A stretch of DNA of 64,000 bases from NCBI RefSeq assembly GCF_000143415.4, contig NW_003314428.1, positions 62,001 to 126,000 of the forward strand, written 5' to 3'. Each line of letters begins with the position of its first letter. The stretch's first letter is position 1. The translations under genes were made by a program, and so were the position numbers. This document shows positions 8,315-62,244 of the stretch, one piece after another. Under the pieces are notes generated by a model. The model was given only the letters and a program-made list of their open reading frames with translations. It was not told where the DNA came from and made no database searches. Source of the DNA: Selaginella moellendorffii. Its lineage: Eukaryota > Plantae > Lycopodiophyta.

Positions 8315-8355
<41 letters not shown>
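8315..8355. repeat. (TA)n microsatellite
   Basis: Direct observation. Confidence 0.95.
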
Positions 8356-8361
<6 letters not shown>

Positions 8362-12560: not shown

Positions 12561-12760
12561 CACTCATGTAGATTCAAACTTTCTCCCGAACATGTAGAGC
12601 CAATATTTTAGAGTGGATCAAGTTGGGGGTGTTACTTTGTCAAGATCTTATGAGACTTGTGCATGCACTTGCCCTAGTTACCCTTGATAATACTCTTTAG
12701 CTAACACACATTATGAGACATCACCTTTCCCACTTATAGTAGTACATACTTCAATTCTAC

Positions 12761-15900: not shown

Positions 15901-16069
15901 AAACTTCTGTAATTAAAAAAGAAAAAAAATATTCTACTGAATTGTACCTCATACAAGATGATACCCAATGTATTCTCATGCCGCCGAAACTTTTAAAGAA
16001 TAGTCTAGATGTGGCCTAAAGAAGAAAGATTATATGAAGGAAGGTTTGTATGAAACTGTAAATGTTTAT

Positions 16070-26681: not shown

Positions 26682-27563
26682 ATTAGATCACCCGAAAGAA
26701 CACAAAACTCGAGGAGTTACCTACTAATTTCTAGAGCTTTCTCATGGAACCCAAGGAGAGCCTCTTCCCACAATAGTCCACTTTCTTTTTTATTTGAACG
26801 ACCAAGGAAACAAACAGCCTGTTAGACACACTTGAGGAGAGTTACTTACCTCCTAAGCCACCTAGCTCTTTTCAATGTTGGCATATGCAACTCACTATCC
26901 TTGGCAAATAAAAGGTGCTCTGGTATATGTGAGATACAAATCCCTAAGCCCCAAAGTGGAGCTGAATGAGTGCCACATGGTAATGGCTGAAGTGGAAGCC
27001 AAAAGAGTGTAACACATTTGGAATAAAAGCTCCAACTTGAAAAGTCAAGAGCGGCTCTCAACAAAGTGCTCAAGGAATGAACACAAAGCAAGCAATGAGT
27101 GAGTCTTGTGAGTGAAAAAGGACACAAGAGGACTAGACTAACACATGACATGTGGAAGTGTCGAGATGGACCCGAGATGGACTTGAGATGGAGTCCAAGA
27201 TGGACCCAATATGGAGTTTGAAATGGAGTCTTAGATGGACCCAAGATGGAGTTCGAGATGATGGACCCAAGATGGAGTTCGAGATGATGGACCCAAGATG
27301 GAGTCTAAGATGGACCCGAAATGGAGTCCAAGATGGAGTTTGAGATGGAATTCGAGATGACCCGAGATGGAGTTTGAGATGGAGTCTAAGATGGACCCGA
27401 GATGGAACCAAGACTGAGATTGAGATTGAGACCGAGAGTCCGAGTCCTAGGCTGAGCCTAAGTCCCAGTCTGAATACTAATACAGGCTGTTAGGTGAAAT
27501 CCCAAAGCGATCATCCCCCAGGGGGAGCTGCAAGGGGTTCCAAAAGTATAGTAGGGAGAGTGT

Positions 27564-29487
27564 TGTAAGCGACTAATTTTTCCATTCTACTTTAGTCACT
27601 TAACCACACCTCTGACCACTTGGAGGAGTCTCATTCACAACCTCCATAAGTCCAATCCAGGACTTGGGACTTGCTAGCCCCGAGAATGGCATCCATGCCA
27701 CTCAACATTTGCACTTGGTCCAAGTGCACCACGTGTCTGATCCCATGACCGACACTCAAAGGTACCACCGACATAGCAGCCCGTTACGCTAAGGCCATGC
27801 CCAATCACCTTTGCCACACTGGTAGTCCAATACCACTTGCATCACCGTCTTGGCTCTCCAAGACTAGGCAAACCATCCGTGAGTGGTCATCTCAGATCCA
27901 CTCCTTAGCATCCTTAGGATGCCCACCGACAAGGGGAATAGCCTTCCCCAATATCCCTCTGTCAGTCCCCACTAAGTCCCTTTCTGCCCCTGGCCGTGTT
28001 TGCCAACACTGCCACTGGATCGAGACCCACAGGCCCGACCACTAAGTCCCACGGTCCTCTGGGACTTCCTCACCACACGACTGTGTCCTTGGTCACTACC
28101 CCAGAGGACTGCTCCTCTTCCTTTCCACAGTCTGGGCCTTTGGGACAACATTTCGGAACACCGTGGCCTTACGCGAGCCACCTGGGTACTCTCCTCGCCT
28201 TCTGCCCTTGGGTGCTCTAGCCATGGGCTTAGAGCGGGTTCCGTTGAGCCACACCAGGTATCCAAGTAGGTAGTGCCACCCACACTTGGACTGGGAGCAT
28301 CGGCCAGTCGATCTCCCGGGGGAACTAGAGCCGGCTCTTGAACACTTCACCAAGCTACCCCGCTTGTCGGTCTGTGTTCACTCTAGTCTTGGACTTCCCA
28401 GTGGGCAGCTCATCACCCAACACTGGGTCCGGCCTTCCTGGGCCAAACTGGCCTTTCCTGGCCAAACTGGCTCCACTACAGTCCTCCCCCTACTATACTT
28501 TTGGAGCTCACCAAACCCCCCAGGGTCTGGGAGACGAACGCTTTGGGCTTTCACCCTCTCAGGCTCCGGACTCGGACTCGGACTCGGACTCGGACTCGGA
28601 CTCGGATTCGGACTCGGACTCGGGCTCGGGCTCGGTCTCGGCCTCGGCCTCGGTCTCGGTCTCGGTCCCGATCTCGGTCTCGGTCTCGGTCTCGGTCCCG
28701 GTCTCGGTCTCGACTTCGGACTCCATCTCGGACTCCATCTCGGACTCCATCTCGGGTCCATCTCGGGTCCATCTCGGACTCCATCTCGGACTCCATCTCG
28801 GGTCCATCTCGGACTCCATCTCAGACTCCATTTCGGATCCATCTCGGGTCCACCTTGGACTCCATCTCGGACTCCATCTCGGACTCCATCTCGGGTCCAT
28901 CTCGGACTCCACTTCGGACTCCAACTCGGGTCCATCTCGGGTCCACCTCGGACTCCACTTCGGACTCCATCTCGGACTCCATTTCGGATCCATCTCGGGT
29001 CCACCTCGGACTCCATCTCGGACTCCATCTCGGACTCCATCTCGGGTCCATCTCGGACTCCACTTCGGACTCCAACTCGGGTCCATCTCGGGTCCACCTC
29101 GGACTCCACTTCGGACTCCATCTCGGACTCCATCTCGGGTCCGTCTCGGACTCCACTTCGGACTCCAACTCGGGTCCATCTCGGACTCCACTTCGGACTC
29201 CAACTCGGGTCCATCTCGGACTCCACTTCGGACTCCAACTCGGGTCCATCTCGGACACTCCCACGTGTCATGTGTTGGTCCTTTTGGGTCCCTTTTTGGA
29301 GCCTCGCCTTTTGCTCGCTTCGTGCTCGTTCCTCGAGCACTTCGTTGGGAGTTCCACTCCCGCTTTTGACTTTTCAAGTCGGAGCTTTTGGTCCAAACGT
29401 GTTACGCTCGTTTGGCTCTCGCTTCGGCCACTACCATGTGGCGCCCTTCCGGCTCCACTTTGGGGCCTCGGGATTTTGTGTCTCACA
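27564..29487 (-). mobile_element. Young family A solo LTR
   Basis: TGTAAG...CTCACA with perfect TSD AGTGT; near-identical to 4072-5867; inserted antisense in the 5' LTR of the old copy. Confidence 0.95.
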
Positions 29488-33833: not shown

Positions 33834-33857
33834 ATGCTCTATTTCGTTAAAGTGGGA
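33834..33857 (+). repeat. Left terminal inverted repeat
   Basis: ATGCTCTATTTCGTTAAAGTGGGA; 23/24 match to the reverse complement of 47217-47240. Confidence 0.95.
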
Positions 33858-34493
33858 TTTATTCAGTAAAATGGGACTAGGTACAAATTTTCAAGTATTT
33901 GAAAATGACGTGAAATTATATGTTTTTTGTCCAGGGGCTAGATATATCTGGGGCATGGTGACTAGCGCGGTGACTTTATGTCCAGACTGAGTCCATCTGG
34001 TTGTATAATAAATCTCATTGTCAAGGTGAACAAACCGAATCTGAAGCTAAAGAAGAGCGATGGCATGCGCGCACACACTATTTATTTGTTCATTGAGCGT
34101 GTGGTGAGCTTTCCAAGATGAATGTCATTCCTATTAGCCAGACATATAACTTAATAGTGAGAACATTTAGATATTATTCAATGTTATCTTTTTCTAACGA
34201 ATCTAATTGTGAAGGTGTAGCAAGAGGCATTGCTAGTCTGGAGAAGTCATTTAACTCATTTGACCCTTAGTGTATTTTCATGAAACTAAATAACATTCAT
34301 ATTATTAAGGAATTTCTCTAGTACCTTTTTTTTACGACATAGAGGCTTGCATTTTTTTCAAAGGTGATTTAGTAAAAGGCCTGAGGGCACATGCCATTCT
34401 ATTTCTCAGACCGGTATTAAGATATACTAGTGCAAAGGGAAAAAGGTATTTGGTGATCAAGTAAATGGCATGAGGGCACACGCCATTATAAGC

Positions 34494-34751
34494 CTAAGCG
34501 CTAGTGGACACCTCCTTTTTGGTACTCTCAGCGGTACTATCATCCTTCTCTGGGTCAGTTGTTTTGCTTTGGATTGTTGTCTCTGACGTTACTGGGGTGT
34601 TCTCGATAGTTGTTAATGTTGCCGTTTGTTCAGAAAAATGATCACTTGGAGTATAGTACGGGGAGTTTGGAAGACTTATATATTCTACATCTTCACCTAT
34701 CTCCTTCTCCGTCTCCTTTTCTGCCTCACTTACAGATTTTGTGCTTGCCAT
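34494..34751 (-). CDS. Small acidic/Ser-Thr-rich ORF (85 aa) inside the transposon, unknown function
   Basis: ATG at 34751, MASTKSVSEAEKETEK...EVSTSA*; flanked by palindrome copies. Confidence 0.35.
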   Translation of the reverse strand: MASTKSVSEAEKETEKEIGEDVEYISLPNSPYYTPSDHFSEQTATLTTIENTPVTSETTIQSKTTDPEKDDSTAESTKKEVSTSA

Positions 34752-34958
34752 GAGAGCGCTCTTCACCCTAAAATATGGAGTTTGTTGTGTTATAAAAGGA
34801 AACCAACACACACGCTGCAAGGGAATGATGGTACATAAAGCACGTAAGCCCACAATATGGGTTTATGTGCCATTAATATGGGCCACACGCCATATTATTA
34901 GATTTATGCACATGTGATTGGTAAATGCATATGTCACATCATCTCAGGCCACATGCCA

Positions 34959-37900
34959 TCACGCCTCCTCTGATTCAGATTCGGATTGTTCACCTTGAAA
35001 TAAAATACATTAGAAACTTAGTAAAGGAATATTCATGAATCTCACCTTGAACCCAGGTTATGAATGCTCTTGCTGCATCTCTTGCATGGTCTGGCAAGGT
35101 GATGGTGGCACTCTGCTTCCACATCCAACCATGCACAACATTATCCACCGATATGCTCATGCTGGGATCCCTTGGATTCAGCACCCATCTCTTTTCTAGG
35201 CAATCCTTCGTATATCCGGAACTTGGCTTGAACCACTCCACAGTTACATTGAAGGAGTTAGTTTCCGCGTCCTCCTCTGCATCAGTGATGCAGTGTCCCA
35301 CCCATATCATTTGTTTTTTATTACTGGGTCTGACAAGCACGACCATTCCTTTGCAGACCTGTACTGGATTGAATGCTGAATCTGGCTTCTTGTTCCTCGG
35401 CCCACAATAGTGATCCTCAACATCGTTATCTGTCACTGCATTTCTAGAGGACATTGTTCCGCTACTATCTGGTGCTCTAGGTTCTGGCCAAAAGGACTCT
35501 TCCAATTCTTCATATACAACCGGCCCATTTTGGATAGCAGATATAATCTTCTCCCAGTATTCGAGCAAAGGCTTGCACCTCTGAAAATAGGATTCTCCAC
35601 CAAACACCAACCCCCTCTTCCAGAAGGCAATATGCTATCTAATCCCGGCCACTATACTTTCCTGGTCTTTGAGTCCATCCGAGTGCATCGGCCATGGGGA
35701 ACACTGAGGAATCATAGGTTCCCCAATTATGGGATCTCTCTTGAAGAGTTCAATGCCGTCCACTGGCAGCCACACTGTGTCCCATTCTCTCATCTTGTAC
35801 CTCATCACTGGAGCACCGTCACACATGCTGAAATGAAACTGAAGAGGCTTGGAGTGGCCAATCAGCGTTTCGGATCCGTCCCTGATGTAGCCTCTTACAA
35901 ACCCCTTAAAGTCTGGAATCTCTGTCAGAAGTGCAGCTTCAACAGTGCCTTTGATGCAATTTTGGAATTCATCGTAGAGTTGTGGGAGGGTGAGGACATT
36001 GGATCGCCGAAGGGACTCTGCCAGGTGACTAAACATGGCATCGACGTCTTCATGAGTGTGCCCAACCATGAGAAAGCCAAGTGTAACCGTTTCAAATATG
36101 CCTTTGGCAACAAGCATCGCCAAGTACGCGAAGACGTACGTTTTTGTTCTCACTGCCAGCATTGTCTGTTTGGAGCAGAAGATGGGGTGGAAGGCCACAT
36201 CGGCCGCAAGAACTTCCTTGAGATTCTGCTTCGTTTGGATGAGGCTGTGCATTCACCGGGCGACTAGCCTCGTCGGAATGGCATGAGGCCTCACGTGATA
36301 ACCCTACAATCTGACGGCCAACATATTCACTGGGATGGCATGGGGCCCCACGCGATATTGCAAGCCTTTGCTCCTCCTCCAGCTGAACCCTGTATGGGGT
36401 TCGATCGACAAGGGCCTTATGCAAGGGTTGGCCGTTCAGCTCAGTCTGCGCACTTTGTAGAGACCTTAAGTGTTTTGCTAGGGACGCAATCATCATGTTT
36501 GCACCCCCGCCACCCCATAGAGGTACAAAGAAGTTCCCATAGTTCTGGGCACCATGCCCATGAGCGATTATGCCAAACAGAGACACAGGTAGCTGCATGG
36601 ATGAAGAGATTGCCTTGGGGGCAGGATTGAGTCGAGGTAAGCACGTCTTTTTCTGGTCCATTTTGTCGTGGATGATGCAGAGGTAAGAGTCAGGTCTCTC
36701 CATGGAGAGAATCCTGTTATGATAATATGCAGTCCTGCAGCTTCTCTGCTCGATGTTGTGGTCGAGCCGCCTTCTAACCAACGTCTCTCGCTCTTGAGCG
36801 ATGCAAGAATTCTTCGACAAAGCCATTTTGATAGCAGTGCACTCGTCACACTTTGAAAAGCTGGAGTACTTTCCTATACTCACATCCCTGAACCTGTTGC
36901 TCCACAATCTACTAAATCTAGATTGGCTCAGCTTCCTGTAGCCATTACTCTGGAGTTCCTGATTCACATCTTCCAATATGGCCCCCTTGGTATACATGGA
37001 AGGGAGAACTCGTTGGGTGTCTCGTGTTCCATCTTCCAAAAGGCGGGTTTTATGTGGTTGCTGCTCGCTACATGTCTCGACAAACCTCTTGAAGATTGCC
37101 TCTCCATATACAACATGACCCCTGGTTTTGTGCATACCGTCGTTCCCATGGACTGCCTGTTGAACCCTTTGTTCCTCGAACTCAGTTTTGATTCTGTAGA
37201 ATGTGGTTCGAGGGACTCCATAAATGATTCTCCATGCCTTCATGCAGACCAAACCCCTCTGGAAGACCATGCCCCCCACCTGATGTTCTGAAGCATCAAC
37301 AGATGACCGTAATGCCTCATACACAAAATTGCGAGCTGCCTTCCAGGACAATGTCTTGTATCTTGCTCTCTCCTCTTCAATAGCATCCCAATCAGCATGT
37401 TGACAGCACCTCCTCTTGCAACAAGCAACTGTTGAGACCATTCGAACTTCCATCGCCATTTTCTGCCTTTTCGGTTCGTTGCTCAGATCCCTTTGGCTGC
37501 GCTTTAGGAAGGTGTACTTTCTTTTCCCATAAAGAGATGTTCTATCATCAGTTGTAATGGTGTTTGATTGTGAATCCTTCACATTCTCAAACACTAAGTG
37601 CCTCAATTTCCACCGCACAATGCTTCCAATAGTCAGACTGTTTTCTTCTGTGTCAACAACCTCTAAAATCACAACTCCAATATCATCCCAGCCCAATTCT
37701 TGATTAGCAACCGCATCTCTTGGATCGACAACTGTGGCTAAGCCCTCAGCTACCACCTCCCCCTCGGGGTTGTTTAGAAACACCTTCGCCTGAATCCATG
37801 TAGCACGGTTCTTAAGATCCACGGAGGGAACATGCGTCGCACTTGCGCTGTCCCCAACATCTGCTTTCTTCTGAAGATTTTTCAAGGCAACAACAACATT

Positions 37901-38098
37901 TACCCCGACGACCATCTCTCCTCGTTCAATAGCGACCACATTCCCAGCGAAGACAGTCTCTACTGATACAGCAGCATTGCCTTCCCCAAGCCTTTGACAG
38001 TGTATAACAAAGTTCCGATCCATAGACACAAGGGTCCCTTTTGCAACTCTCTTCCCACCATTTAAAATGTAAACCTTTTCCCCAACCCTGAAGGCCAT
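34959..38098 (-). pseudogene. Sola-type DDD/E transposase (~1000 aa reconstructed), disrupted
   Basis: Motifs FSKCDEC, IIHDKMDQKKTCLP, LQTDNAGSENKN and FLMVGHTHEDVDAMFS. Joins ORFs 36092-38098, 35635-36252 and 34990-35610 through a frameshift at ~36140 and an in-frame TAG at 35635-35637. Probable 52-nt last intron 35045-34994; splice acceptor just before the ATG. Confidence 0.85.
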
Positions 38099-38286
38099 TC
38101 TGAAAGTGCAGAAAAGAAGTTAAGACCATATAAAAAATGATTGGAGAATGGCCTAAATCATAACATACCAAACAACCTCAATAGCATGAGGCCACATGCC
38201 ATTATTCAAACATGCTATTGACACCCACGTGAAATTTCGCATTCACAAAATTGGCATGAGCCCTCATGCCATTAGTGGTACCACTA

Positions 38287-38478
38287 ATGGCATGAGGCCT
38301 CACGCTATCTTTGGCCACTGCTAGCCTGTTGCTATATTCCTTTTGCCTTGTTGCAACTGTATATATTTTTGTGTGCGTGACTAGTCACCCATGCAAAAAT
38401 ATATACAATTGCAGCAAGGCAAAAGGAATATGGCAATAGGCTAGCAGGGGCCAAAGATGGCATGAGGCCTCATGCCAT
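38287..38478. repeat. 192-bp loop-less inverted repeat (hairpin)
   Basis: Two 96-bp arms about 90% complementary, centred on GTGACT|AGTCAC (38382/38383), each capped by the 22-bp palindrome. Confidence 0.92.
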
Positions 38479-41203
38479 CTTGATATACACATAGCTGCAG
38501 GCAAGTAAAAATATACATGACAATATGCTAGCCATGAAATTGCAAGGGCCCAAGATGGCATGTGGCCTCATGCCATTTCTAAATGTGGTCCTAAGCCATT
38601 CCATGGTGAACATACCAGGAAGCACAAGTGCCGAATATCAAGAGGAAGCGGTAGCCACACCAAAGACAGTGCCGCTCGCAACACCGCAACTGCTCGTAGC
38701 GCCGCTCGCACAAACTGCCACTCGCATAAACTGCCGCTCGCAATGGCGCTCGCAATGCCGCAACCGCTCGTAGACGCATAAACCACAGCCCACAACGCCG
38801 CTTACACAAGCAGCGCTCACTGCGCTCAGCGGAACCAAGAACACGGCGCACAAAAATGATAGACCTAGGAATGAGTTCGAGAATTCAAAAATAACACACG
38901 CTTGAACGTCACATCAAATCCTCTGACAAACCAGATTTTATGATTCCTCTGACAAATTTCAAACTGAGTAGCTTCTAGACTTTGCTGTCGGAGGTTGAAC
39001 TTTGTCACATCATGTCCTTGCCTCAATCCAACTGTGCCATGTCAGTGATTCGAACTTTGCCATGCCATGTCAGCGATCCGCGCCAAGATTATTCGCCGTG
39101 TAAAGGAATAATTATGCTGTGTGTGTACGTCCATTTATGGCAATATAAGGCCACACGCCATTCAAAGAATAATGCTAATCGAGCATTTTTTGGTGCATTT
39201 TTGGGTTAAAAATTGCATGAGCCCACACGCTATAAAGTTTACCTGTACCAAAAATAGAAACAGCTTTATTTACTTGGGAATTTAAGTGGTTGAGGCATTT
39301 TTAAACTTACAAACACATGCCCTACTTACATTCCTTTGGTTGCTTAAAATTCAAAAATATTATAAACCTTTCTTTTTGCATTTTCAATGTTTTCAATTAT
39401 GGTTTTTGATTTTCGCAGGACCAGCCTAGTAATCTATTTGCATCCCGTCATGTTTATAACTAGCTTTCGTTTGTCCCCTTCGCTAGCCTGAGATACATCT
39501 GCTCGGCATCTGCCTCTTACAGCATTTGCCCAGAAAGGGCATCTTTCTTCACGCAGCATTTGCCACATGTTTAGGGTTTAGGGTTTAGAGTTTAGCAATT
39601 CAGTAGCTTGATAAACATGCAAATACAGAACTTGATGCAAAATCCTTTGATATGTCACAATGCCCCTAGGACCATAAACACATTTCAATAGAGAGGGTCC
39701 TTTCATTTCATAACTCCTTACGTAGATCTTGGTGAAACCAGAGTTAGTGAAGTTAGTTTCTTGTGATCCCGCATCTGATTGTGATGTCCCTTTGCAGTGT
39801 CGATGGAAAGGTCAATGCACACCAAACTGTAAAATCTTGGAGCAAAATAATGGTCGGATCTATGGCAAATGCCCCTGAAACATTGTAAGGCTCGTGTGGT
39901 CTCATGTGGTGTCCGATTGAGATGCTTCTTTGCAGGGTCATCAAGAAAGACATTGTATACCATTCTGTAAAATCTAGTTGCGATCTAACGGTTGGATCTC
40001 CAGAAAACTCAAAAACATCTCGCGCGTGTCAGAATATCCTAGAAATATACTCCTATGTGCCCCTGAAAATGGCATGCGGCCCCACGCCATTCAAGAGATA
40101 ACGCCAGATGACGTCGAGAATTTTTTGGTGCATTTTTTGGGTTCAAAATTGCATGAGCCCACACGCTATAAAGTTTATCTTTGCCAAATAGAGAAAAGTT
40201 TATCTGTGTCATGTGAGGTAGTTACAGTCCTTTGTGCTCGGCATCTGCCTCTTGCAGCATTTGCACTGAAAGGGAATTTTTCTCCATTCAGCATTTGGCC
40301 CTGAAAATGGCATGCGCCCACACGCCATTCAAGGAATAACGCCACAGGACGCCTGGATTTTTGGGTTTAAAATGTTTAGGGTTTTTTGGGTTTTTTCAAA
40401 ATATTTTGGGTCCAACGTTTTTTGGGTTTCTTTGGTTCAAAATTGCATGAGCCCACACGCTATAATATTGATTTGAGAGAAAAATAGAAACAGATAGAAT
40501 TTCTTTATTTAGCTGAACATCTGCCATTTTTGGAAATACAAGATGCTTTGGAATATCCAATCATGCATGGTATAAATATAGCGAGGGTATTAAATGATAT
40601 CCCAATCATGATCTTTCTTTTGGATTTCGCGTGCATGCAGTTCGAGGAATGATGACGTTGCGGATTTCTTTTGGATTTTGCGTGCTTGCATGCGCGCGGC
40701 AATCCAGAAATTAATGGTGGCGCCCAAGTCCGAGGAATGATGATGTGGTGGGATTACCAACCGTTGTGACATTTCGCGCGTGTGAGGTTAGGTTTTGCAT
40801 TTTGCTTCGTACTCGTGCTCGCACACTCGCGCTCGTGCTCGCATCACACTCACGCTCGCATCGCGCTCTCACTCGCGATCACGCTCACATTCGCGCTCAT
40901 CTACCTTCTCTACAGGTTTCTCATGTGCATCGGCGTCCACTCGCGCTTGCATCACACTCGTGCTCGCATCGCGCTCGTGTGCATCGGCGTCCACTTCAAG
41001 ACACACCCAGTTTGTAACTTTGCCGCCAACTCCGCCGCCCACTCCGCCACCCACACGCAGCCCACTTGGCGTCTCGGGAGATTTCAGCGCCACTCTCCAA
41101 CTGTAAGTGGCAGAGTAGCCTTGCTGCTACGATCCGCTGCACACACAGTGCACATTCGCCAGCGAGTCCGGCCTCGATTGTCACGGCCTCCATTCGGCTT
41201 CAA

Positions 41204-44200
41204 ATGGTAAGTCTTTTAGGCCAAGTAGAAAATGGCATGAGGCCACATGCCATTCAGTAGCAACATTGGCATGCACCGATTGGGCTCTCGAGTGCAGTCC
41301 GGTTACAGATGGCGTGTAGCCTCACGCCATCTTAGGATGCAGCCTCAAGACATCTGATGCAGTGGTGAATGGCGTGTGGCCTTACGTTATTTCCAGCTGC
41401 TAGCTTTTCATCTGTCAGCTCTAATTGTTGTGCATTTCTGAACAGGCGAGGAATTGCGTTCTTCTTCCAGCCACTGTCAATGTGGATGCAGAGAAGGGGG
41501 AGGAGCTCACCAGTTGGACTTTCGGGATGGAAGGCGAGGATCTGATGCTGTACAACACAGATGGTGGGAGAAAAGAATGCATGGGGATCCTCATCCAAGT
41601 GACAGACACTCCATGCAGTTCCATGCAAGAATATGGACTGGCACTTGTGGTAGAGACAGCGTCCGCCTTCAAGATCCACCTTGCACATCCTAGCGGCTTC
41701 CCGGAGGGGGGCAGCGGCTATAAGGAATTCCTAGAGGGAGCTAGGGAGAGGTTGTCCAGGAGGCCCACAATTTCAAAGACGCTGCGGGTCTATGAAGATC
41801 ACATGGAATCCACGGACCTCACCTACGGCGATGTTCAAAAACTATATTCCAACATTGAGCCGTTGAGAGTGCCTCCAGTTCGCGAAGCAAAGGGGAAGGG
41901 GGTCGATCTGGAAATTACCCCGAAGCAGAAAAGGGTGGTCAAGCTCAAGCCGACGTCCGACTCTCCTGCTCCAAAAAAGAAGCTACTCGGTGATGCCATT
42001 GCCTCGGGTTCGAACACTACACCCACCAAAAAGAAGAGCCGCAAAGAGCAGAAAGAGCAAGAAGAGGTAGCAAAAATCGTCGCAAATAATAGTACTTGTT
42101 ACTATTCCAACAAAGTATATACAATCGACGTGAGCCGTATCGACATCCAAAGCAAATACAACCACAGGCTAGTATCTGATGAGTGGGTGGAGAAACTGAA
42201 GCAGAAGATGCTGGCAAGTCCAGTAACACCCGACATCGCAGACGTGATCCCCTACTACCGAACAATGAAGGGCGAGACGAGGTTTCCAGACTTGATCAAT
42301 AGGAAGGTGTTGGACGATCAGAACATCCGGTTCTATGCCGTCTCTGGGCAGCATTCTAGCTTGGCGATGCAACAGATAGTTGTGGATATTATGGTGGGCG
42401 AGGAGGTGAAGAAAGTCTTCAAGACAAGAGTTGTCCGCCTGATAAAAGGCAACTCGCCCCTCCGATCTATCATATACATCTCCCATGCGCAGAATGTCAA
42501 GCAAGAAACGTGCTACAAATCGGGTCTGCACGAGACATTGGCACGAACACGGAAGCTCTGGGTTCAACTGAAGAAGCCACAAAAACCAGGACATGGACGT
42601 GCACTAGCGGCTAGCGCCTGGCAGGTAAGCCTCGTTGCATGTGGCATAACATGTGGCCTCACGCCATTTCCATTGCAGGAATTCTTGAGTCTTCTCTCGA
42701 AAACACTGGGGGTCAATGACACACTCAGCATCCATAACATTCTACTCGCGACAAAAGTTGTTTTTGACAAATGGGTAGATGTGCTGAGGAGGTACCATGA
42801 CGGGGAGTTGCTAAACTCAATGGGTGTGGAGGACGGCCGGAAGCCCAATGATTTGAAGCTCAATGCCTTGCGTTTCTCGCGGTCTCTAGACGACGACGAC
42901 CTTCTGACAGTGGCTAATGCTCTTCTACGTGGTGAGGTAGTCTTCAACAAGACCAAAATGACTCCCGGCCATATTGTGACATACGAGGACTTGTGCACGA
43001 CTCTGAGAGCTCGTGCGCTATTGAAGGATTGGATCTTCGAGCAAGTGGCCGTGGAGAGGGTGAGCATCAACACCACGCAAAAGATGATGGAAGAGCTGGA
43101 GTTGTCAAATGAAGACATCGACGACTACGTGAAGGGGGCCCCCAAGTTCATCGATCTGCTGCGGGATGCCACGAAAAGTAAAAGCTGAGAAGTTGGATCA
43201 GTATCCAAATTTCATTAAGAGGGATGTCAACCGCCGGCTTCAGAAACAGCTCGACCCCGCAGCAGAGGCCTATCGAGAACCTTACCGGGTATACGTGAAT
43301 TCGGATGAGGATCAAAGGTGGAGGAGCATCGTTTCCAGCGGAGATGAGCAGGTCAAGAACATCTTTTGTGTGATGGACTTCACAAACGAGGAGATCACTC
43401 ATGCAGACGAAGTCAGCTCCATCATTGACTTAATGGTGGGACTTGCGAAGGTGGAATCTTCAGTCCACTATATGATTTACGACTCCGAATCTTATCACAA
43501 GTTCTGGAAGGCCTTGAACGAGGTGAAGGCTCGGTTGAAAGGCAAGGAGATGCGGGAGATCCATGGGATAATGGCTAAGAAGAAGATACTGACGAATGTC
43601 CGCATCTTCACACTCGCCCTTGTTATTGGTCCTGCAGCAGAGTGGGACTGGAGTGACTTCCCAGCTTCGTTCAACAAGGCCGATCGAATTGATCTGAGGG
43701 AGGTCAATTTACCCGTGCCTGAGGAACTGAAGACGGCTATGGAGCTTTCGAATCCAAAGAAAGCTCCAGGTGCAGCATGGGAAATGCTCAGCTGGGTCTT
43801 CAACGCAATAGCGGGTGACTCCAAGGGCAAATGCGTTGTCGAGTACAACTACGGCGGACTATTCTTTCAATCCGCACTACTCAAGGGTGTCCCGTGTGTT
43901 GCGGTGACAAACTCCATTGAAGAGGTGACTTGAATGGAGCATATAATTACAGTTGCCAAAGAAAAACAGTATCTTCTCTACGAACCTGGTGAGTACGCAC
44001 TTTAAGTTTAAATGTTATCTCACAAGCTCTGTATGCAGGAGCGTGGCCACCCCCAGATGCTGAAACGGCGTTAACAGCTACTGATGTTAGGCCGAGCTCA
44101 CAACCTGCACAAGGTAAGGTCACGTGAGGCCTCACGCCATTTTGATTATAGATCGTTGTGAATATTCAGACACGAGGACTGAAAAGCGCACTGGTGGCGC

Positions 44201-45128
44201 GTCGAAGAAGGACAAACAGACAAGCAATAGGAAAAAAGGAGGTACAAATTATATTTGTAATGGCGTGTGGTCTCATGCCATTCCTTGCAGGAGACACTTC
44301 TTCAAAGGCAAAACAGGCAAGCACCAGCCAAGCTCAAACTGACAGTGGTCATAAAAAGCGAAAGCACGTTGGACAGTCGTCGGGATCAGAGGCGTTTGAT
44401 TCGAAAAGGAAGAAGGGCAACGAAAAGATGATAGGTAATGCCTCGCGGTTATGGCGTGTGTGCTCATGCCATTCATTGCAGATCAAGGGCTGAGTGAAAG
44501 GAGCCAGTCACCACCTCCTGACTCAGATTCCTATGGCGGACTCCCCTTCCCCAATCTCAATGGAGAGGTACAATGGATGAGGGATGCTTTTCAAGTCAGG
44601 GCCACATTTTTCTCATCTCGTCGTCTTCGAAGGGTGCAAGAACGTGCAGAAACCATGTTAAGACAGTCGGGTGAGGATACGGTCCTAGGTCAAGCTCTAA
44701 AACAGGCTATGGATGTCTTATATTTTGAGATGGAGACTCGGCCAGATGATTTTCCCAAGATGGTCCTGGAAAAACAAGCCATCCAGCCTGAGCAGCCTAT
44801 GGAAGAAATGCAGGAGGGGGATGAGGAGCCAGAGAAAGATAATGAGCAGGAAGAGCAGAAGGACGAAGAGGAGGACAAAGAAGAGGAGGACGAAGAAGAG
44901 GAGGACAAAGAAGAGGAGGACGAAGAGGACTTGGATGGTCCTCACAATGGTGACGATCACAATAACGACGATGACGATGATGACGACGATGGCCAGCCTG
45001 AGGTGGCCAAAGAGCAGCGGAGGAAGGTTATACAAGACAAACCATCAGGTAAATAATAGTACATCCATTCCTAACCTTTTACCATTTCTAACATTGTCCA
45101 TGTAGGTCGCAGAAGAAATGGTAAGTAG
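41204..45128 (+). pseudogene. Multi-exon cargo gene: ParB/Srx (DGQHR-like) domain, helical region, possible degenerate N6/N4-MTase-like domain, acidic tail; one frameshift
   Basis: ATG|GTAAG at 41204; intron 41207-41445; in-frame intron 42625-42678; frameshift at ~43175 joining ORFs 41425-43188 and 43166-43933; further GT-AG introns starting ~43925, 43989, 44114, 44242, 44435 and 45049 that keep the frame. Motifs YTIDVSRIDI..NHRLVSDEWVEKLKQKM and FYAVSGQHSSLAM. Confidence 0.75.
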
Positions 45129-45347
45129 AGATTATTCAGTTGAATTAAGATACAAACTCTAGCCTTTAGTGTCGAGGAAGGATAGTGCCAAGCAAGGGTC
45201 GAAACGTATGTCCAATCCTTCAGAATCAGCAGTGCGCCCAATAGCAATTGATGGTAAATACAGTATAGTCGATTCAATGTGCTAATGAGTTTGTTTTTAG
45301 TAGCCAGTAGGGAGGATACCATCTCAATCGAAGGGAGATATTTGGAC

Positions 45348-46798
45348 ATGCATATAGATCCGCCAGTGGACTCTACTTGCCTGCAAGAGTCATTAGAGCT
45401 AGTGGAGGCTACTATCCATATCAACGCCAAGCAAGCTGACCACGCTCCACTTGATGCTGCCCATACCACTGAGTCAATCTTGTCCACGTATCCAACTGAC
45501 GGTGACTAGGCGCCATTGGACCTGCATGAGGCCGCCCCAGCCGCCAAGCCGGTCGTATCCTCATTTCCAACGGACTCAACGTGTGCCCAATCGTCTGACT
45601 ACGCGCCGTTGGAACCTCCCTACACCGCCCCTGCTGCCTGTTCGGTCATGTCCACTTTGCCAATGGAGGCACCAGCTGAAATGGCGTGTGATCACACGCC
45701 ATCGGAACCACCCCATGCCACTGTTGAGCCAGTTGTACCAGAGTCTACAGCTGAAATGGCATGTGCCCACACGCCATCGGATGCGATTGACCCCACATTG
45801 CAGAGGAGAGTATTTCCGCCCTTCACGTTTCCTCGACCAAAACCCTCTAAACGACCATCGGGAGCACCATTCGCTAATATTGTAGATGGTAAAATTGACT
45901 TGTACCATTTTTTATGCTGACGCATTTCATTTCAGAGTCACGGCGAAAGTACTGTATCATTTTTGATCTGAACGGTGTCCTTTTCTCCCATGAGCGTGGC
46001 TCGTCCTCGAATGTCACTGCACCCTCCAAAGCATGCGGTCGCAAGTTGGTCAAAAGAGACAGATTCACATTAATCACACGGGAGAAACTGTAGGATCTAA
46101 TAATGACCATGCAACACTTAAAACAGAGGGCCGGGTTCAATTTGCAATTGGGAGTTTGGACATCCATGATGCGCCACAATGCATTAACGTTGCTACAGAT
46201 GATGCACGATCAGACGCGAGTAATATTACCATTTGACTTTCTCCTAACGCAGGAGGATTGCTTGACTATGGTCCATGTGAGGGGTAGCAAGCCCATCTTC
46301 GTCAAGCCAGAGGCTGTAGTGATGAACCGGACTGCTAGGTCAAGTGAAATCCTCATCATCGATGACTCGCCGATTAAAACTGCAGCGAACACGCACACAT
46401 ATGTAGTGCACCCCATCTCTTGCAGTATGGAAACTAGGGAGAAGAAACCATATGTTCTGGGGGACCTTGCAAAACGGCTTGAAGCGATGGTGATAGAGAA
46501 CCGGCCAGTCCAGGAGGTGGCTGCAGAAATCAACCAAATGGCAGATGGAACGGTATATCAGAAGCCATTTGATCGGACAGACACCAATCATCATTTATGG
46601 CATGTATATTGTCTAGCCAAGCACTATTCGCATCTCCATAATCTGCTCAACTGGATGGGTTCTTCGACCACTAAACATGAGCGTGGACGTATTAGAGAAG
46701 AGATGGCATTACTATTGGGTTTAAATCCTGATAGTGTGGAGAGTGATAAAATTCCAAGATTATTGTATAGGCGTTGGAGGCAAAAAATAACAGTCTGA
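45348..46798 (+). pseudogene. FCP1/SCP (NIF-family) HAD phosphatase-like cargo gene with two premature TAG codons
   Basis: After the intron at ~45889-45934: KYCIIFDLNGVLFS (HAD motif I variant), LGVWTSMMRHNA (motif II) and ILIIDDSPIK (motif IV). In-frame TAG at 45507-45509 and 46091-46093. Confidence 0.8.
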
Positions 46799-47216
46799 GA
46801 TGGCATGTATTTATTTAAAAATGTAACTTATTATGGCATGGGGTTCCATGCCATTGTATTAATATTAAAAGACAATTCTTTGAGAGGATTTGCATTATAC
46901 TATAAGTGTTACAGCATGTTATTGGAAGTCTACAAAGTTGTTTTATTAATAAAGGGAAAGTAAAGATTGAATGGGGACTTGGGCTCCACTTAGACTCGGA
47001 GCAACTGAGCCAATATTAAAAGGATGGAAAGAAATTGGATGACGATAATAAGGAGAAGAGAGAGGTGAAGCAGTGGCAGGGGGAGGAGAAGTGATTGAGT
47101 AGACATTTCCTTATTTAAAATAAAATGGCATGTGCCTCAATGCAGTTGAATTTTGTTATATTTATATACTATATAAAGGTTTGGAAACCTTATTTTACAA
47201 GTGGGATAATGACAAT

Positions 47217-47240
47217 TCCCACTTTAACGAAATAGAGCTT
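47217..47240 (-). repeat. Right terminal inverted repeat
   Basis: TCCCACTTTAACGAAATAGAGCTT followed by TSD AGGA. Confidence 0.95.
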
Positions 47241-49912
47241 AGGACTTGGCAGTTTGGAGGAATTAAGTTCCTAAGCTATAATGTAATTTGGGTATAAATT
47301 GGTGCATTGGCGTGAGGAGTCATCCCAAGCATCCTAGGTGATGCTGTCCATAGATGCATATATGGAGATTGGGTTTGAGTCCCAACCTTCTAGTGTTTGG
47401 GTTTGAGTCCTAACTCACTAGGGCATGATGATGGTTTGGAATATGAGAACACTCATTTTTTGGTGGTCATGGACTCTCAATAAAGAGACTACCTTGGGCC
47501 CACCACCAAGCGGGGGATGCCCTTCTTTATTATTTACCATGCACTTTTTTAAAAGTTAAATGACAAAGTTGAAAAGTTGTTTTCCTTTCAGAGCCATGAT
47601 GTACAACTAGATTGCTTAGTGTGAAAGCTCGGCATATCTTACTTGAACAATTTGGTGCAAGTGGCACTAAGAACGTGGTGAATGAATTGGGGACATCTAA
47701 TCACAATTGCTATGGACGGGTTAACTTGGGCGCACCACCAAATGTGGTGGATGCCCCTAGGTTCATGGTCAACAACTTAAAGGTCTGGAAGATTTAGTAC
47801 ATATTGGCAAACTTGTTAAGGTGTCAAAGTGAGATCATTAGATGATCTTGTGGCTAAATAAGGACAAAGTCTTTGTTTGGTTAAGGAATAAGATTCCTAG
47901 TTCAAAGTGCTAATTTGAACTATTAGTAATGGTGTGACTTGGTCAAAATGACTAAGTGGGAAGGACACCTAAGAGAAATTAGCTATATCAATATGCTAGC
48001 ATAGTGAATCCAAGAAAGTAGTCTCTAGGAAAGACCATGGGAGGGTTACAAAGTTGGGCTATAGATAAAGCCCACAACAGAAAATGCTAAAGAAACTTAC
48101 TAAGGGTGAACACCTTTTGGATTTCGCAAAGTAAAGCTTTTGCTATGGAACCAAAAGAATACCTCAAAGATCGAGGTAGTGATCCTCTATTGCTTAATGC
48201 AATAATTAAGGGATAAAAGCAAAAGGCTAGTGGCTAAGATTGGGGCATAAAAATCATTAGAAAGAATCTAAACAGTAAAGTTAAGCAAGGAACACTCAAA
48301 TGTTGGATGCTAACTAATATTGGGAAAGGAAATATGATTTTAATAGATTCCCAAATACTCTAATTTGGCAAAGGTGAAAGTTCCAAGGGAGGGAGTGGCA
48401 AGGAAGCCAAATAGTAGGGCTGTGGACAGCCCTAGCATAAATTAAAGATAAATGGAACTTAGTGGCTAAAGTGGCACAAAATAGAAGAGAAGATGATGGT
48501 GCCCTTAAGTAAAGAATTTTTTAGGATGGGGAAGTGGAATTTCCACAACATGTGCAATGCAAGGTGTTGGAGACACATAGAAAATTGACTTTGAGAAGTT
48601 AAAATTAAAAGTTCCAAAGTGTGATGGTTATATTGTTAAAAGCTGAGACTACTCGGGAATGAGTAGTTGGATTGAGATAGAGAAAGTGTCTCTAACGGGT
48701 TTAGCGAGAACTAAACCAAATAAAGGGAGAGAACCACCACAAGTGGTTTATTAAATCTCTAAGTTAGAAAGACTATGCTCCTTGGATAATGAGTAAGGCA
48801 TGGTGAGCCTTTAGTGTCAAACCGTTGACGAATATTGACTTGATGCTAAGGATGAAAAGAGTAATATATAATAGTGCTACTTTATAAAATGGTTTATCAT
48901 TTGATGAGGACATCAAACTTTATTTATGGGTGGTGGAGTTGTGAGACACAAATCCCTAAGCCCCAAAGTGGAGCCGAATGGGTGCCACGTGGTAGTGGTT
49001 GAAATAAAAGCCAAACAAGCGTAACACATTTGGACTAAAATCTCTGATGTGAAAAGGCAAGAGTGGGAGTGGAACTCCCAACAAAGTGCTCAAGGACCAA
49101 GTATGAAATAAGCAATGAGTGAGTCTCTAGAAAAGGGACACAAGAGGACCAACACATGACACGTGGAAGTGTCGAGATGGACCTGAGATGGAGTCTCAGG
49201 TGGACCTGAGATAGAGTCTGAGGTGGACCTGAGATGGAGTCTGAGATGGAGTCTGAGGTGGACCTGAGATGGAGTTTGAGATGGAATCTGAGATGGACAT
49301 AAGATGGAACCAACTGAGTCTGAGAGTCCGAGTTCGAGTTCAAGCCCAAGTCCAAGTCCGAGTCTAAATACTAATACAGGCTATAGGTGATGTTGGATCA
49401 CCGATGTGACAAAGGTGAATGGGCATGGCCTTAGTGTAATGGGTTGATATATTGATGGTACCTTTGGGTGTTGGTCATGGGATCAGACACGTAGAGCTTT
49501 TGGACTAAATGCAAAGGTTGAGTGGCACGGATGCCATTCTCGGGGTTAGCAAGTCTCTAAATTGAGAATAAGACTTATGGAGGTTGTGAGAGAGACTCCT
49601 CCAAGTGGTCGAAGGTATGACTAAAGTTGAATGAAAAATTTAGTTGCTTACAGTATAGAGCCCTGAGTTTGTTGACCACATGCAAACCAGCCAGTTCTCG
49701 CCTCTCTAGGATGATCCTTTGACAGTAGATAGTATGCAATGCCAGCTCAATCCAGGCCATTGGATTTGAAGACATTGCAGCCAATTCTTGGGGATCTTCC
49801 CCATTCACAAGAACAAAAAATGGAGGCTGAAGTGGAATCCAGAAAAGCTAACCTTCCATATACCAACTTATAGCATGGCAGGAGAGTCCCACAGCCAAGT
49901 CATGACACAGAG

Positions 49913-59671: not shown

Positions 59672-62244
59672 CTAGCAAGGATTCCAGCTCCACTGGAATA
59701 GATAGGAAATTTGTTACATTGGTGACATGAATCCTCTTTGGACATAGACATTATGGTTCTGGAGCACATTTTATCCCTTGCATTGTTCAATGGACATTGT
59801 AATTTGTTTCTTTAGTGTTCCCCTTGAAAGCACAACATAAAGTTGACCGTGGCCAAAAACTGGTTTTGGCAAGTAGATACCCACATTCCGTAATGTTTGT
59901 CCTTGAGATTTGCAAATTGTTATGGAGAACATAAGCTTTTTTGAGAATTGTCATCATTTGAGGATAAATGGCATGTCTCTATCAATCAATTTTAAAGAGA
60001 TTCTTGGTAGGAATTTTTTCCCTACCATTATGTAGAATTTCAGCTTCTATAACATTTGGTAGTGCCTTGGTTATAATCAGTTTAGTGCTATAGTGTCGAT
60101 GTTGCATAGCAATATTACGATGCATCCAGTTTTTATGTGTGCTTGTGCAGAGGCATTCCAGATGGTGTACTGAGTTTAAGGATTCTATAGGATAGTCCAA
60201 CGTCTCTTCATCAAAATCTGTTTCTATGATGTCAATGATTTTGTATGTTATTGTTCTATCAGTCATTCTTGAAAGGACTTGGTCATTCACTTGTAGAGTG
60301 AGATCATTTAAAGTTGAGAATAGCTTTTTGCAATAGCTTTGGATCATTTTGGTTGTATGTGCTTTCCAAACACATTATCTATCATTTGTTCTCTGGTGGT
60401 GGAAGAGGTAATTTTATAACTTTCTGGTTGAATCTTTGGAGGCTAGGTAGGTTACCATTTCTGAGCCTCACAAGCCATCGGGACCATTCCTTTTCTTCAG
60501 AGTTCACCCTCATATTAGTGTATAATGAGAACTTTACAAGTTTCCACAGGATTTCATGTTATTTTGGACAATTTGTGTGTGACAGGCTCTTTTTAGAATA
60601 GGTAATGTCTGTCTGAAATCTCCTCATGTTACTAATGTGATGCCACCAAATTTGTATCACAGTTTTTTATGTCATGCAAGACCCTTTTTACAGCTTTAAA
60701 AGCATGAATGGGTACCATGCTTATCTCATCCCATATAAGCAGGTCATCTCTCCTTATGACCTTGGCAGGTGCTGAATTCTCTTGCAGGTCCAAGGTGCAT
60801 GTTTCTGTGATTGGTACTAGTAGCTTAAATGTTGAATGAGCCGTTCGGCCTTCGATAAGAAGAGTACTTGCTCTTCCTGTCCATGTGACCGCTAAGACTT
60901 TCATGTCATAAGCAGTGGCATATTTTATTAGCATGTTAAAATGGTATGATTTAGCCGTGCCTCCAACACCATCAAAGAATAATCTGTTTGTTTCGTTTTG
61001 TTTTTTTTTTTTTTGTATTGCATTCAAGACGTTAAATATGTGAAGTTGTTCCATATTCAGTCTGGTTTTTGGCATGCATGGCACACAACTTGTTTTAGTT
61101 GTTTCGTTATCTACTACAAAATCTAGATCTGGTAACTTGTAGTTGAAAAGTTTCTTGCCATGTTCCTGGAGTAATATAGACATTTCATGCAATCCATGTT
61201 GCACTGCTGCTTCATACAAGTCTTCATACATGCCTTCCTTGAATTTATCCCATAGTTTTTTTGGGATCAATGAGCTCACAAAACAAACACATGACAACGA
61301 ATAGATACCTTACTTTTGCAGGCATCTTAAATGTCAAGAACTCTTTTAAGCATTTATCCCACTCACAATCATCCTGTAGAAGTCCCATTTCTTGTGTGGT
61401 AGAATGGTATGTGTCATATGCAACACCGTTTAATACCTTTAAATTTCTAAAACTTGTAGCACCTTTTTTGTAGAGGAGCATACATAGGTAGAAACGTTTA
61501 GAGTCATGCAGTGATATAGTGTACATCTACCAACCACCTTGAATGCACGTTGGCATGGTATCCACATTCTATTTCATGGTACAAGAGTGTCCTTGCAAAT
61601 TCATCGGTCTTGTTTAGTTCAAACCATTCCATCAGTTTGGTTTTATCACCACTTTGTAATGCAATCTCTTCCTCACCTTCATTGAAATAAATACTTTAAA
61701 GGTTTTCCAGGTGGATGTCCATTCTCTCGATAAAATGTGATCTCCCATGCAAGTCATATCCATAGATCCTCCATATTCCTTTTGATGTGGAGACATGGTG
61801 GCAGTTTTTTAAAGCCTCTATTTCATCCCAGTCTAGTACTTGTTCAGGAGTTGAATTCTCATCCCTTCGAAGGTGTACCTCTAGACAATCATGTCCCTTA
61901 TATAATATTACTTGACACTTTTTACAGTGGAACACTCCTTGACATTTATGTGTATTCTGTATTTACATAAGAGGTATTTATTATATGGCATGACAAACCT
62001 GTTGTTGATGGATTTGTTCTTTATTAGAATGATATGTCCTTCTTGGTGCCTTCTATACTTTGGAAACTGACCCTTGACATTCTGAATTTCTTCACAGTAA
62101 TCTCTTGGGTAGCGTGACTTATATTTGCCATCCTTCGTGCATGGGCTGTTTAGAAATTCAGGCCCACAAGGGTGGTGTATCATGTGCTTTTTAACCAATT
62201 CATACAATTTTGGGTAGGTATTTCTGCAGTAACTATATTATCTA
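59672..62244 (-). mobile_element. Decayed Helitron (Rep and Pif1 helicase)
   Basis: KHMIHHPCG..SPCTKDGK..YPRDY; YNKYLLCKYRIHINV; FYLCMLL..KGATSF; FFDGVGGTAKSY; IWDEISM; 3' hairpin ATTCCAG-CTCCA-CTGGAAT with CTAG at 59672-59675. Confidence 0.9.

Follow-up and report, generated by a model that had tools for sequence, protein, structure and literature searches.

Accessory genes that join a prokaryote-type ParB-like binder to a DNA- or chromatin-modifying domain have recently been described in brown, red and green algae, and to our knowledge nobody has shown the targets or the function of such ParB-like transposon genes. Likewise, we know of parS binding, CTP-dependent spreading and ParA partners as established in bacteria only. 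A literature search joining ParB, N6_N4_Mtase and transposon found no paper. Among the closest described systems is the Ectocarpus element Sola1-1_Ec32 (21.5 kb long, bounded by AACCG..CGGTT and having a terminal inverted repeat of 282 bp), which is reported to carry, opposite its transposase, a gene for a 1104-aa protein with ParB-like and N4C/N6A methylase domains; its authors propose that this protein attaches to the element encoding it and modifies it (Dinatale et al. 2025, PMC12477816). In red-algal Plavaka (EnSpm) transposons, the accessory gene PAG3 is described as combining a ParB-like domain with a putative 2-oxoglutarate (2OG) oxygenase. It has no InterPro match and is adjoined by tandem inverted-repeat arrays, and HHpred sees its domains only weakly, with E values of 0.29 and 0.016; the cassette is reported to move between transposon families, and a separate methylase gene, PAG2, carries PF01555 and SET (Petroll et al. 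2025, bioRxiv 10.1101/2025.02.11.637652). Fungal Starship elements are described as carrying DUF3723 (PF12520) as a conserved cargo gene (Gluck-Thaler et al. 2022, PMC9156397).

We analysed a 64,000-nt stretch of the Selaginella moellendorffii assembly (contig NW_003314428.1, positions 62,001 to 126,000; hereafter the window), in which an earlier note had read positions 43270-43925 as a possibly dead beta-class DNA methyltransferase domain fused downstream of a ParB-like domain. On balance we favour a gene-level explanation, namely that this queried stretch is the middle part of a multi-exon transposon accessory gene, the product of which is predicted to bind 22-nt palindromes. The gene lies in an apparent 13.4-kb DNA transposon bounded by candidate terminal inverted repeats (Table 1). 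The terminal repeat amounts to one 25-nt pair; the outer flanks of its two arms are unlike, and no clear target-site duplication was found at the element ends. Near-identical copies are numerous in public runs. Pfam searches of the larger flanking ORFs returned unrelated transposon genes only.

Divergent from the ParB-like accessory gene, and on the opposite strand, is a DUF7869-type gene with 13 homologues at E<=0.001, including P0005, P0006 and P0013 (830-1074 aa), whose matches to PF25273 DUF7869 have E values of 1e-44 to 1e-45. Relatives of its protein are encoded in 428 of 600 candidate metagenome stretches, and the protein is probably the transposase. Searches of the literature for DUF7869 and PF25273 found no paper, and going by these searches only, the family appears undescribed. 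The accessory gene shares with its algal counterparts a place inside a transposon opposite a transposase-like gene, as well as adjoining inverted-repeat arrays. Pairing of the two genes is not general, because 80 metagenome loci (829 kb) carrying DUF7869 relatives gave no match at E<=10 when searched by tblastn with the read-through accessory protein. The 3' side of the element holds coding pieces of a NIF/FCP1-like phosphatase-like protein; a TAG at about 46092 interrupts their frame, and FDLNGVL stands at what we take to be the place of the DxDxT motif of the NIF family. These pieces belong either to the same gene or to a second accessory gene.

Table 1. Features of the element and its candidate accessory gene (window positions)
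Feature	Position	Strand	Remark
Candidate left terminal inverted repeat	33836-33860	.	25 nt, 96% complementary to 47214-47238
Candidate right terminal inverted repeat	47214-47238	.	Pairs with 33836-33860
Transposase-like gene, DUF7869 family	34990-38098	-	Main ORF 36092-38098
Likely further exons, DUF7869 gene	35635-36252, 34990-35610	-	
Divergent intergenic region, rich in 22-nt palindrome ATGGCRTGNGGCCNCAYGCCAT	38181-41390	.	14 of 24 palindrome sites
96-nt hairpin within intergenic region	38287-38478	.	
ParB-like accessory gene, first large exon	41425/41527-42624	+	Holds part coding for ParB-like domain
Part coding for ParB-like domain	42100-42624	+	Residues 226-400 of ORF 41425-43188; language-model features
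Predicted intron, in-frame, 54 nt	42625-42678	+	GTAAGC..TTGCAG; palindrome end 11 nt before 3' splice site
ORF with queried stretch, orphan domain	43166-43933	+	255 codons
Extra A, private to window copy	43180	+	Shifts frame between ORFs 41425-43188 and 43166-43933
NIFCVMDFTN, place of 'motif IV' in the earlier note	43358-43387	+	Profile score -8.7, rank 63 of 263 placements
NPKKAP..SIEE, place of 'motif X/I/II' in the earlier note	43751-43924	+	I-II block -14.9, rank 8 of 237
TGA stop, private to window copy	43931-43933	+	C at 43932 in other copies
Same gene, continued: five exons (K/S-rich, helical and acidic parts)	43934-45049	+	After intron removal
Predicted GT..AG introns	43989-44038, 44114-44151, 44242-44290, 44435-44481	+	Removal keeps frame open
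NIF/FCP1-like phosphatase-like coding pieces	45914-46798	+	PF03031 NIF E 0.0019, short of cut-off

The window copy of the accessory gene is decayed or decaying: one inserted base and a stop codon break it. The 255-aa ORF at 43166-43933 is present in the window and contains both peptides quoted in the earlier note, and the upstream ORF 41425-43188, on the same strand, is read in a different frame. The A at 43180 that separates these frames was absent at all depth in public runs X19, X6, X16 and X4 and in half of run X1 (193708 of 391212 depth). Position 43932 was compared in four runs (X19 has no coverage there) and was C rather than the G of the window in X1 (528195 of 528351 depth) and at all depth in X6, X16 and X4. 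The frame of the accessory gene is open from about 43134 and does not change past 43933; removal of the four downstream GT..AG introns adds 310 codons after the TGA, with no stops, up to 45049. Because other copies lack the A and carry the C, the intact gene would extend from about 41.5 kb to at least 45049, and it is predicted to be a multi-exon gene of about 1,100 codons with short introns. The fusion to the ParB-like part proposed in the earlier note therefore holds in the other copies only, since in the window the two ORFs differ in frame. Its supposed C-terminus, SIEE(VT), was an artefact of a decayed copy, ending at a TGA that is private to the window whilst the frame itself runs on.

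Differences between the window and the other copies were mostly C>T or G>A on the window side (25 of 32; 10 at CpG), and within 43166-43988 residues were changed by 10 of 12 differences, the stop being one. The copy in X4 differs from the window by two indels in the coding sequence (15 and 12 nt), both of which keep the frame, as expected for a gene held open in the family. Contigs from two public runs, guessed to be RNA, were unspliced. An intron at 43178-43201 linking the two ORFs was considered and rejected, given that its 24 nt are a multiple of three and the reads differ by 1 nt.

Homology searches gave little for either part of the accessory gene. No homologous protein was found for ORF 41425-43188 in the protein search, and no related loci were found for ORF 43166-43933 in viral or metagenome contigs. 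A HMMER search of the 255-aa ORF against 1.84 billion representatives yielded one match at E<=0.001, P0003 (E 6e-07), which we rejected as spurious, this being a 1787-aa W/C-rich repeat protein in which every repeat matches the stretch AEWDWSDFP. PDB sequence searches with the accessory gene returned nothing below E 0.85, and PHROGs and NCBIfam returned noise only. For a DNA-modifying partner domain (PF01555 or 2OG oxygenase), Pfam, PHROGs and NCBIfam were blank above noise, and no histidine stands in the ORF at the distance that we assume for an oxygenase fold.

The ParB-like call of the earlier note is supported by language-model features (0.92-0.96) but not by Pfam, which matched neither a ParB domain nor DUF3723 at E<=1 in this part. 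Scores reached 0.96 both to eukaryotic hypothetical clusters and to a DUF3723 cluster, and 0.92 to a ParB_N cluster, 35% of which carry ParB_N; a score of at least 0.95 is attained once in 100 shuffles. At what we presume to be the arginine-bearing GxxR box of ParB the protein reads FYAVSGQHSSLAM, with SGQHS supplying a glycine and a histidine without the arginine, and the domain, if ParB-like, is thus a divergent one. From these features we infer a ParB-like N-terminal domain in the accessory protein, a call that is better supported than the methyltransferase reading, if still indirectly. Approximately 270 residues lie between this domain and the queried stretch.

The foremost alternative concerns what the queried domain is, and can hold alongside the gene-level explanation. 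It takes the stretch for a beta-class (PF01555-type) N6A/N4C methyltransferase domain from which motifs IV and I have been lost and which acts as a DNA-binding reader, adaptor or decoy beside the ParB-like domain, and we regard it as a minority possibility. A profile was made from an alignment (A1) of E. coli YhdJ and 17 phage enzymes, taken from phage records because a search for YhdJ homologues gave close relatives only (68-100% identity). The earlier note had suggested a check against PF01555; no such row appeared in Pfam at E<=10 for the ORF, whether or not the private stop was read through, and hhalign against the 18 family members gave a probability of 0.11% (E 0.5). The whole-domain HMM scored -1.3 bits, which was matched or beaten by 1508 of 3000 shuffles, and the scores of the C-terminal and N-terminal block HMMs were reached by 2937 and 2162 of 5000 shuffles, respectively. 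Methyltransferase HMM scores were at or under the shuffle median, and substitution of the letters of other copies left the outcome unchanged. The NPKKAP block, whose score was reached by 1122 of 2000 shuffles, was the only one with its best placement in the register of the earlier note. The motif parallels quoted there accordingly stay within chance. Its statement that the catalytic motifs are degenerate came off better. No [DNS]PP[YFWH] (motif IV, (D/N/S)PP(Y/F/W)) occurs in the three reading-frame pieces of the gene, the place reading DFTN, and no [FYVIL]xGxG (SAM-binding motif I, FxGxG) occurs anywhere in it, the place reading YNYGG in the window and YNCGG in other copies. The domain, if methylase-derived, is dead by these motifs.

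Two single-sequence AlphaFold models had mean pLDDT values of 38.3 and 39.6, too low for the fold to be read, and Foldseek of the first, a low-confidence model (pLDDT 38-40), against the PDB gave 0 matches at E<=0.001. The closest named language-model clusters were PF01555 fragments (0.80-0.82), and the ten best family-bearing matches all belong to one family or clan. Scores of about 0.8 are, however, attained by one third of shuffled proteins, and the 102-112 features shared by these matches fall in the range of chance matches or distant relatives; they rate as a lead only. Further points in favour of methylase descent come from the arrangement of the weak matches. Of 257 placements for the HPxxKP block, the one on NPKKAP is the best, and the top stretch in hhalign, although insignificant, is query 86-119, aligned to the helix and strand after DPPY; because of where this falls, the weak matches run in family order, from DFTN (71) through the helix-strand (86-119), NPKKAP (196) and YGG (229) to IEE (251). 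The spacings between them are within a few residues of those in YhdJ (alignment A1), and EHIITVAKEKQ follows the private stop in frame, where the family has its last helix. The published analogue Sola1-1 of Ectocarpus, as described, is also of similar size and of the same orientation to its transposase (PMC12477816). Against this, Pfam, hhalign, the HMM shuffles and the register ranks were all at chance, and among the 4539 ORFs of the metagenome loci examined above, which encode relatives of the transposase-like gene, the HMM found no methylase. No sequence test supports the methyltransferase reading of 43270-43925. Descent of this domain from a beta-class methyltransferase can accordingly be held only tentatively, and otherwise it would be another alpha/beta domain.

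The palindromes are sharply confined to the element. At up to two mismatches there were 18 sites, compared to 0.00 expected (100 shuffles), and at up to three there were 24, all at 34376-46854 and hence between both arms, with the remaining 50 kb of the window free of them. Four of the five predicted introns carry a palindrome ending 9-11 nt before the 3' splice site, including three of the four introns in 43934-45049. Because so many introns carry one at a fixed distance, the palindromes could be relics of intron spreading or splicing aids. On such an account they would be unrelated to the protein, being the cores of introner-like self-copied introns or hairpins that aid splicing, and the product would act elsewhere. 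The introns are short (38-54 nt), and four of the five consist of little besides a 5' splice site and a palindrome, followed by a T(T/C)CNTTGCAG-like tail. We nonetheless consider this account improbable. More than half of the sites are intergenic (Table 1), several of them in close arrays and in a single 96-nt hairpin, an arrangement that does not fit an intron-only role, and the motif is missing from the remainder of the window.

Under the explanation we favour, the ParB-like domain would bind the 22-nt palindrome, in 24 copies across the element, as ParB reads parS, and the queried stretch would be its non-catalytic partner module, as suggested by the absent motifs in a domain of unrecognised family. 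Binding may then serve the regulation of the element itself, through the divergent promoter, chromatin state or control of transposition. A more elaborate version, somewhat less probable again than the intron account, is that of a transposon with a system resembling a partition complex, in which the 24 parS-like palindromes are loaded with a ParB-like protein whose relic methyltransferase domain does no more than read or clamp DNA. The element would conceal these sites in its divergent promoter and in nearly every intron of its genes, there at a constant distance from the 3' splice site; if true, one protein could sense copy number and silence or protect the chromatin of the element, and this control could be coupled to the splicing of the element's own messages. 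Least credible is a PAG3-like protein that, once bound to the inverted repeats, would modify the transposon it comes from; behind its ParB-like domain would stand a 2-oxoglutarate/Fe(II) oxygenase or some other domain that modifies DNA or chromatin. The red-algal Plavaka gene, as described, shares the layout (bioRxiv 10.1101/2025.02.11.637652), Pfam is blank here too, palindrome arrays adjoin the gene and one HxD exists (HAD, ORF residue 79). That HxD is, however, the only one, no Pfam oxygenase family matched at E<=1, and the nearest clusters by language model are fragments of methylases rather than of oxygenases.

The locus is a compact case of such an accessory gene, with a sharply defined candidate site, a 22-nt palindrome found 24 times and in the element only, a partner domain without recognisable enzyme motifs, and sites that sit, oddly, within short introns of the element itself. 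Should the protein bind the palindromes, self-recognition by a transposon could be put to a direct test; a partner domain proving to be a relic methylase would illustrate the decay of such cassettes into non-enzymatic readers.

Compared with Sola1-1_Ec32, to judge from its description, the Selaginella gene is likewise predicted to encode a large protein (about 1,100 codons against 1104 aa) with an N-terminal ParB-like domain, on the opposite strand from that of the transposase. The methylase domain recognised in Ectocarpus has, in contrast, no detectable counterpart here, and the element is smaller, at 13.4 kb, with different termini of about 25 nt. With PAG3 it shares an N-terminal ParB-like domain seen by sensitive methods only, the absence of a Pfam match, and inverted repeats beside the gene. 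It differs, again by description, in that no oxygenase, SET or PF01555 was found in the gene and in that the accompanying transposase-like gene is of the DUF7869 family. The ParB-methyltransferase fusions of phages and plasmids, and beta-class enzymes (PF01555), resemble it in the order and approximate spacing of the weak matches and in the upstream ParB-like domain. Here, however, there is no significant profile match, no (D/N/S)PP(Y/F/W) and no FxGxG, and the gene is eukaryotic, with predicted introns and some 270 residues between the domains. DUF3723 is alike in the language-model score of the ParB-like part (0.96, with 183 of 256 features shared with the DUF3723 cluster) and, as far as described, in being an accessory gene of large mobile elements; it is unlike in that Pfam gave no match at E<=1 and in that Starships are reported to move by a tyrosine recombinase rather than by a DUF7869 protein. 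Finally, whereas the candidate sites here lie in the introns and divergent promoter region of a transposon, the locus resembles bacterial ParB-parS in that a ParB-like gene adjoins many copies of a palindrome of about 20 bp.

The queried gene, which contains the stretch at 43270-43925, is best read as an accessory gene of a transposon, present here as a decayed copy and lying opposite a DUF7869 transposase-like gene (see table of features). To compare copies, contigs of public runs were aligned to the window. One A at 43180 is missing in other copies (all depth of runs X19, X6, X16 and X4; 193708/391212 in X1), and at 43932 the window carries G where the others carry C (528195/528351 depth in X1 and the full depth of X6, X16 and X4; X19 has no coverage there). 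Both the shift of frame separating the two ORFs and the TGA closing the second are therefore private to the window copy. The peptides quoted in an earlier note, NIFCVMDFTN (43358-43387) and NPKKAP..SIEE (43751-43924), are present. The fusion of a ParB-like part with the stretch that it proposed does not hold in the window copy, where the frames differ, but the frameshift responsible is this copy's own; similarly, the supposed C-terminus does precede a stop in the window copy, but one private to it. The frame of the second ORF is open upstream to ~43134 and continues past the private stop, where removal of four short GT..AG introns yields 310 open codons, to 45049, followed by another GT. With the ATG at 41527 as its start, an intact copy of the gene would comprise about 1,100 codons or more. 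Contigs are unspliced in both runs presumed to be RNA, and the introns are predictions. The coding part of the subfamily copy in X4 differs from the window by two in-frame insertions, 15 nt at 43816 and 12 nt at 44083, sizes that keep the frame in both cases; the former adds five codons in a loop immediately before the strand-like stretch CVVEY.

Features of the window discussed in the text
Feature	Position	Strand	Remark
ORF, 668 aa	36092-38098	-	opposite strand to accessory gene
ORF, 587 codons (first ORF)	41425-43188	+	one frame off from 43166-43933
ORF, 255 codons (second ORF)	43166-43933	+	contains both quoted peptides
Predicted intron, 54 nt, in-frame	42625-42678	+
Predicted GT..AG introns	43989-44038, 44114-44151, 44242-44290, 44435-44481	+	removal keeps frame open
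Apparent copies of one intron design	42625-42678, 44114-44151, 44242-44290, 44435-44481; also 41207-41257
Candidate terminal inverted pair, 25 nt, 96% complementary	33836-33860 / 47214-47238		outer flanks unlike
NIF/FCP1-phosphatase-like coding pieces	45914-46798	+	inside element; score under Pfam cut-off
PIF1-like helicase fragment	60632-61297	-	PF05970, E 9e-27

Decay is evident in the window copy. At 32 listed places between 41000 and 45200 it differs from nearly all others; 25 of the differences are changes of C>T or G>A in the window copy, 10 of them at CpG, and 10 of the 12 differences in 43166-43988 change a residue. Such substitutions resemble what deamination would leave in a silenced copy. 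One X1 contig bridges an 86-nt skip (41579-41666) with TTTAGGG-type telomere-like repeats between both sides, hinting either at plant-type telomere repeats in the host or at a healing event in one copy of the element.

The 668-aa ORF had 13 homologues at E ≤0.001, and relatives of 830-1074 aa (P0005, P0006 and P0013) matched Pfam DUF7869 at E ~1e-45. The family, represented in the window at 34990-38098 (minus strand) and in metagenome loci L022-L101, is widespread, with relatives encoded in 428 of 600 candidate metagenome-contig stretches. Its proteins are ~1,000 aa long, and IHDKMD and HGH are invariant in the 13-sequence alignment A2. We infer that the ORF encodes the element's transposase. 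In a literature search, no publication that mentions DUF7869 or PF25273 came up; DUF7869 is probably a transposase family whose published name in Pfam terms is still missing. An element delimited by the 25-nt inverted pair would measure 13.4 kb, and no clear target-site duplication was seen at the pair. Within the element, the NIF/FCP1-like pieces read FDLNGVL at what we take to be the family's DxDxT position, the second aspartate being N, and their frame is interrupted by TAG at ~46092; they may represent another enzyme-like module that has degenerated, or a second accessory gene.

The surrounding window is eukaryotic in style and patchy in composition (GC 0.22-0.57), with satellite arrays and sparse long ORFs. 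A very AT-rich block at 6001-16000 (GC 0.22-0.34) adjoins blocks of GC 0.46-0.57. Four satellite arrays of related 12/23/35-nt units (TCCATCTCGGAC and its reverse complement; 4939-5633, 27163-27426, 28431-29256 and 49174-49308) flank the element on both sides, each yielding long spurious ORFs in several frames. The PIF1-like fragment is probably a Helitron remnant.

Pfam returned no match for the ParB-like part, and the presumed place of the ParB arginine box reads SGQHS in the first ORF. In a language-model comparison, residues 215-400 of this ORF scored 0.96 with clusters of eukaryotic hypothetical proteins as well as with DUF3723; the score was 0.92 with a cluster in which part of the members carry ParB_N. 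DUF3723 is described as a conserved fungal Starship cargo gene of unknown function (PMC9156397).

The 22-nt palindrome ATGGCRTGNGGCCNCAYGCCAT was found 18 times when up to 2 mismatches were allowed (0.00 expected). Allowing up to 3 raises the number to 24 sites, every one of them within 34376-46854, with none in the remaining 50 kb of the window. By analogy with ParB at parS, the accessory-gene product would likely recognise these palindromes of its own element through the ParB-like domain. The main rival reading is that the palindromes are cores of self-copied introns or splicing aids: of the accessory gene's five predicted introns, four contain one, ending 9-11 nt upstream of the 3' splice site, and these short introns look introner-like. 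Against a role confined to introns, the divergent intergenic region 38181-41390 contains 14 of the 24 sites. The introns (38-54 nt) seem to share one design of 5' splice site, 0-20 nt spacer, palindrome and T(T/C)CNTTGCAG-like tail. Some of the intergenic sites belong to a 192-nt hairpin at 38287-38478 (arm pair 96 nt, 90% complementary, no spacer), which is built around palindrome copies.

In the recognition scheme, a partner module lacking enzyme motifs would be encoded by the queried stretch. The earlier note took it for a catalytically dead beta-class methyltransferase, a claim that is unproven. Family searches came back blank: Pfam did not report PF01555 for the stretch even at E ≤10, whether or not the private stop was read through, and PHROGs and NCBIfam searches gave noise. 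Against a profile combining YhdJ of E. coli with 17 beta-class enzymes of phages, hhalign returned a probability of 0.11% (E 0.5) and the HMM -1.3 bits, with 1508 of 3000 shuffles equal or better. Taken alone, the C-terminal and N-terminal motif blocks were reached by 2937 and 2162 of 5000 shuffles, and substituting the letters of other copies made no change (3159, 2812 and 2664 of 5000). Nor did the motif parallels fare better in the register proposed: motif IV scored -8.7 (rank 63 of 263 placements) and motif I-II -14.9 (8 of 237), while the sole block ranking first, NPKKAP (257 placements), had its score reached by 1122 of 2000 shuffles. (D/N/S)PP(Y/F/W/H) and FxGxG are absent throughout the accessory gene. 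HMMER against 1.84 billion representatives gave one match at E ≤0.001, a repeat protein aligned to a tryptophan-rich stretch, judged spurious as a homologue; viral and metagenome scans for relatives of the stretch gave nothing. Searches around 80 relatives of the DUF7869 gene in metagenomes turned up neither the accessory gene nor a methylase. Two single-sequence AlphaFold runs reached mean pLDDT 38.3 and 39.6, too low to judge the fold, and Foldseek with the first, low-pLDDT model gave 0 matches at E ≤0.001. We regard descent from a methylase as rather unlikely, with several points in its favour. PF01555 fragments are among the nearest clusters in the language-model atlas (0.80-0.82, a lead only by the tool's calibration), all ten family-bearing matches fall in one clan, the weak motif matches follow the family's order with compatible spacing, and the frame after the private stop resembles the family's last helix. 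There is also a published precedent: PMC12477816 describes, in Ectocarpus Sola1-1_Ec32, a 1104-aa protein with ParB-like and N4C/N6A methylase domains opposite the transposase, and cites similar proteins for transposons of green and red algae.

Further precedent comes from red-algal Plavaka elements: as described in bioRxiv 10.1101/2025.02.11.637652, PAG2 combines PF01555 with SET, and PAG3 combines a ParB-like domain with a putative 2OG oxygenase, has no InterPro match and is adjoined by inverted-repeat arrays. The partner module may descend from a methylase, from an oxygenase-type domain like that of PAG3, or from something else. Algal DNA transposons have been known since 2025 to encode ParB-like accessory proteins with adjoining inverted-repeat arrays; in contrast to these, the gene described here has a partner domain without detectable family, is paired with a DUF7869 transposase-like gene, and carries a palindrome in nearly every predicted intron at a fixed distance to the 3' splice site.
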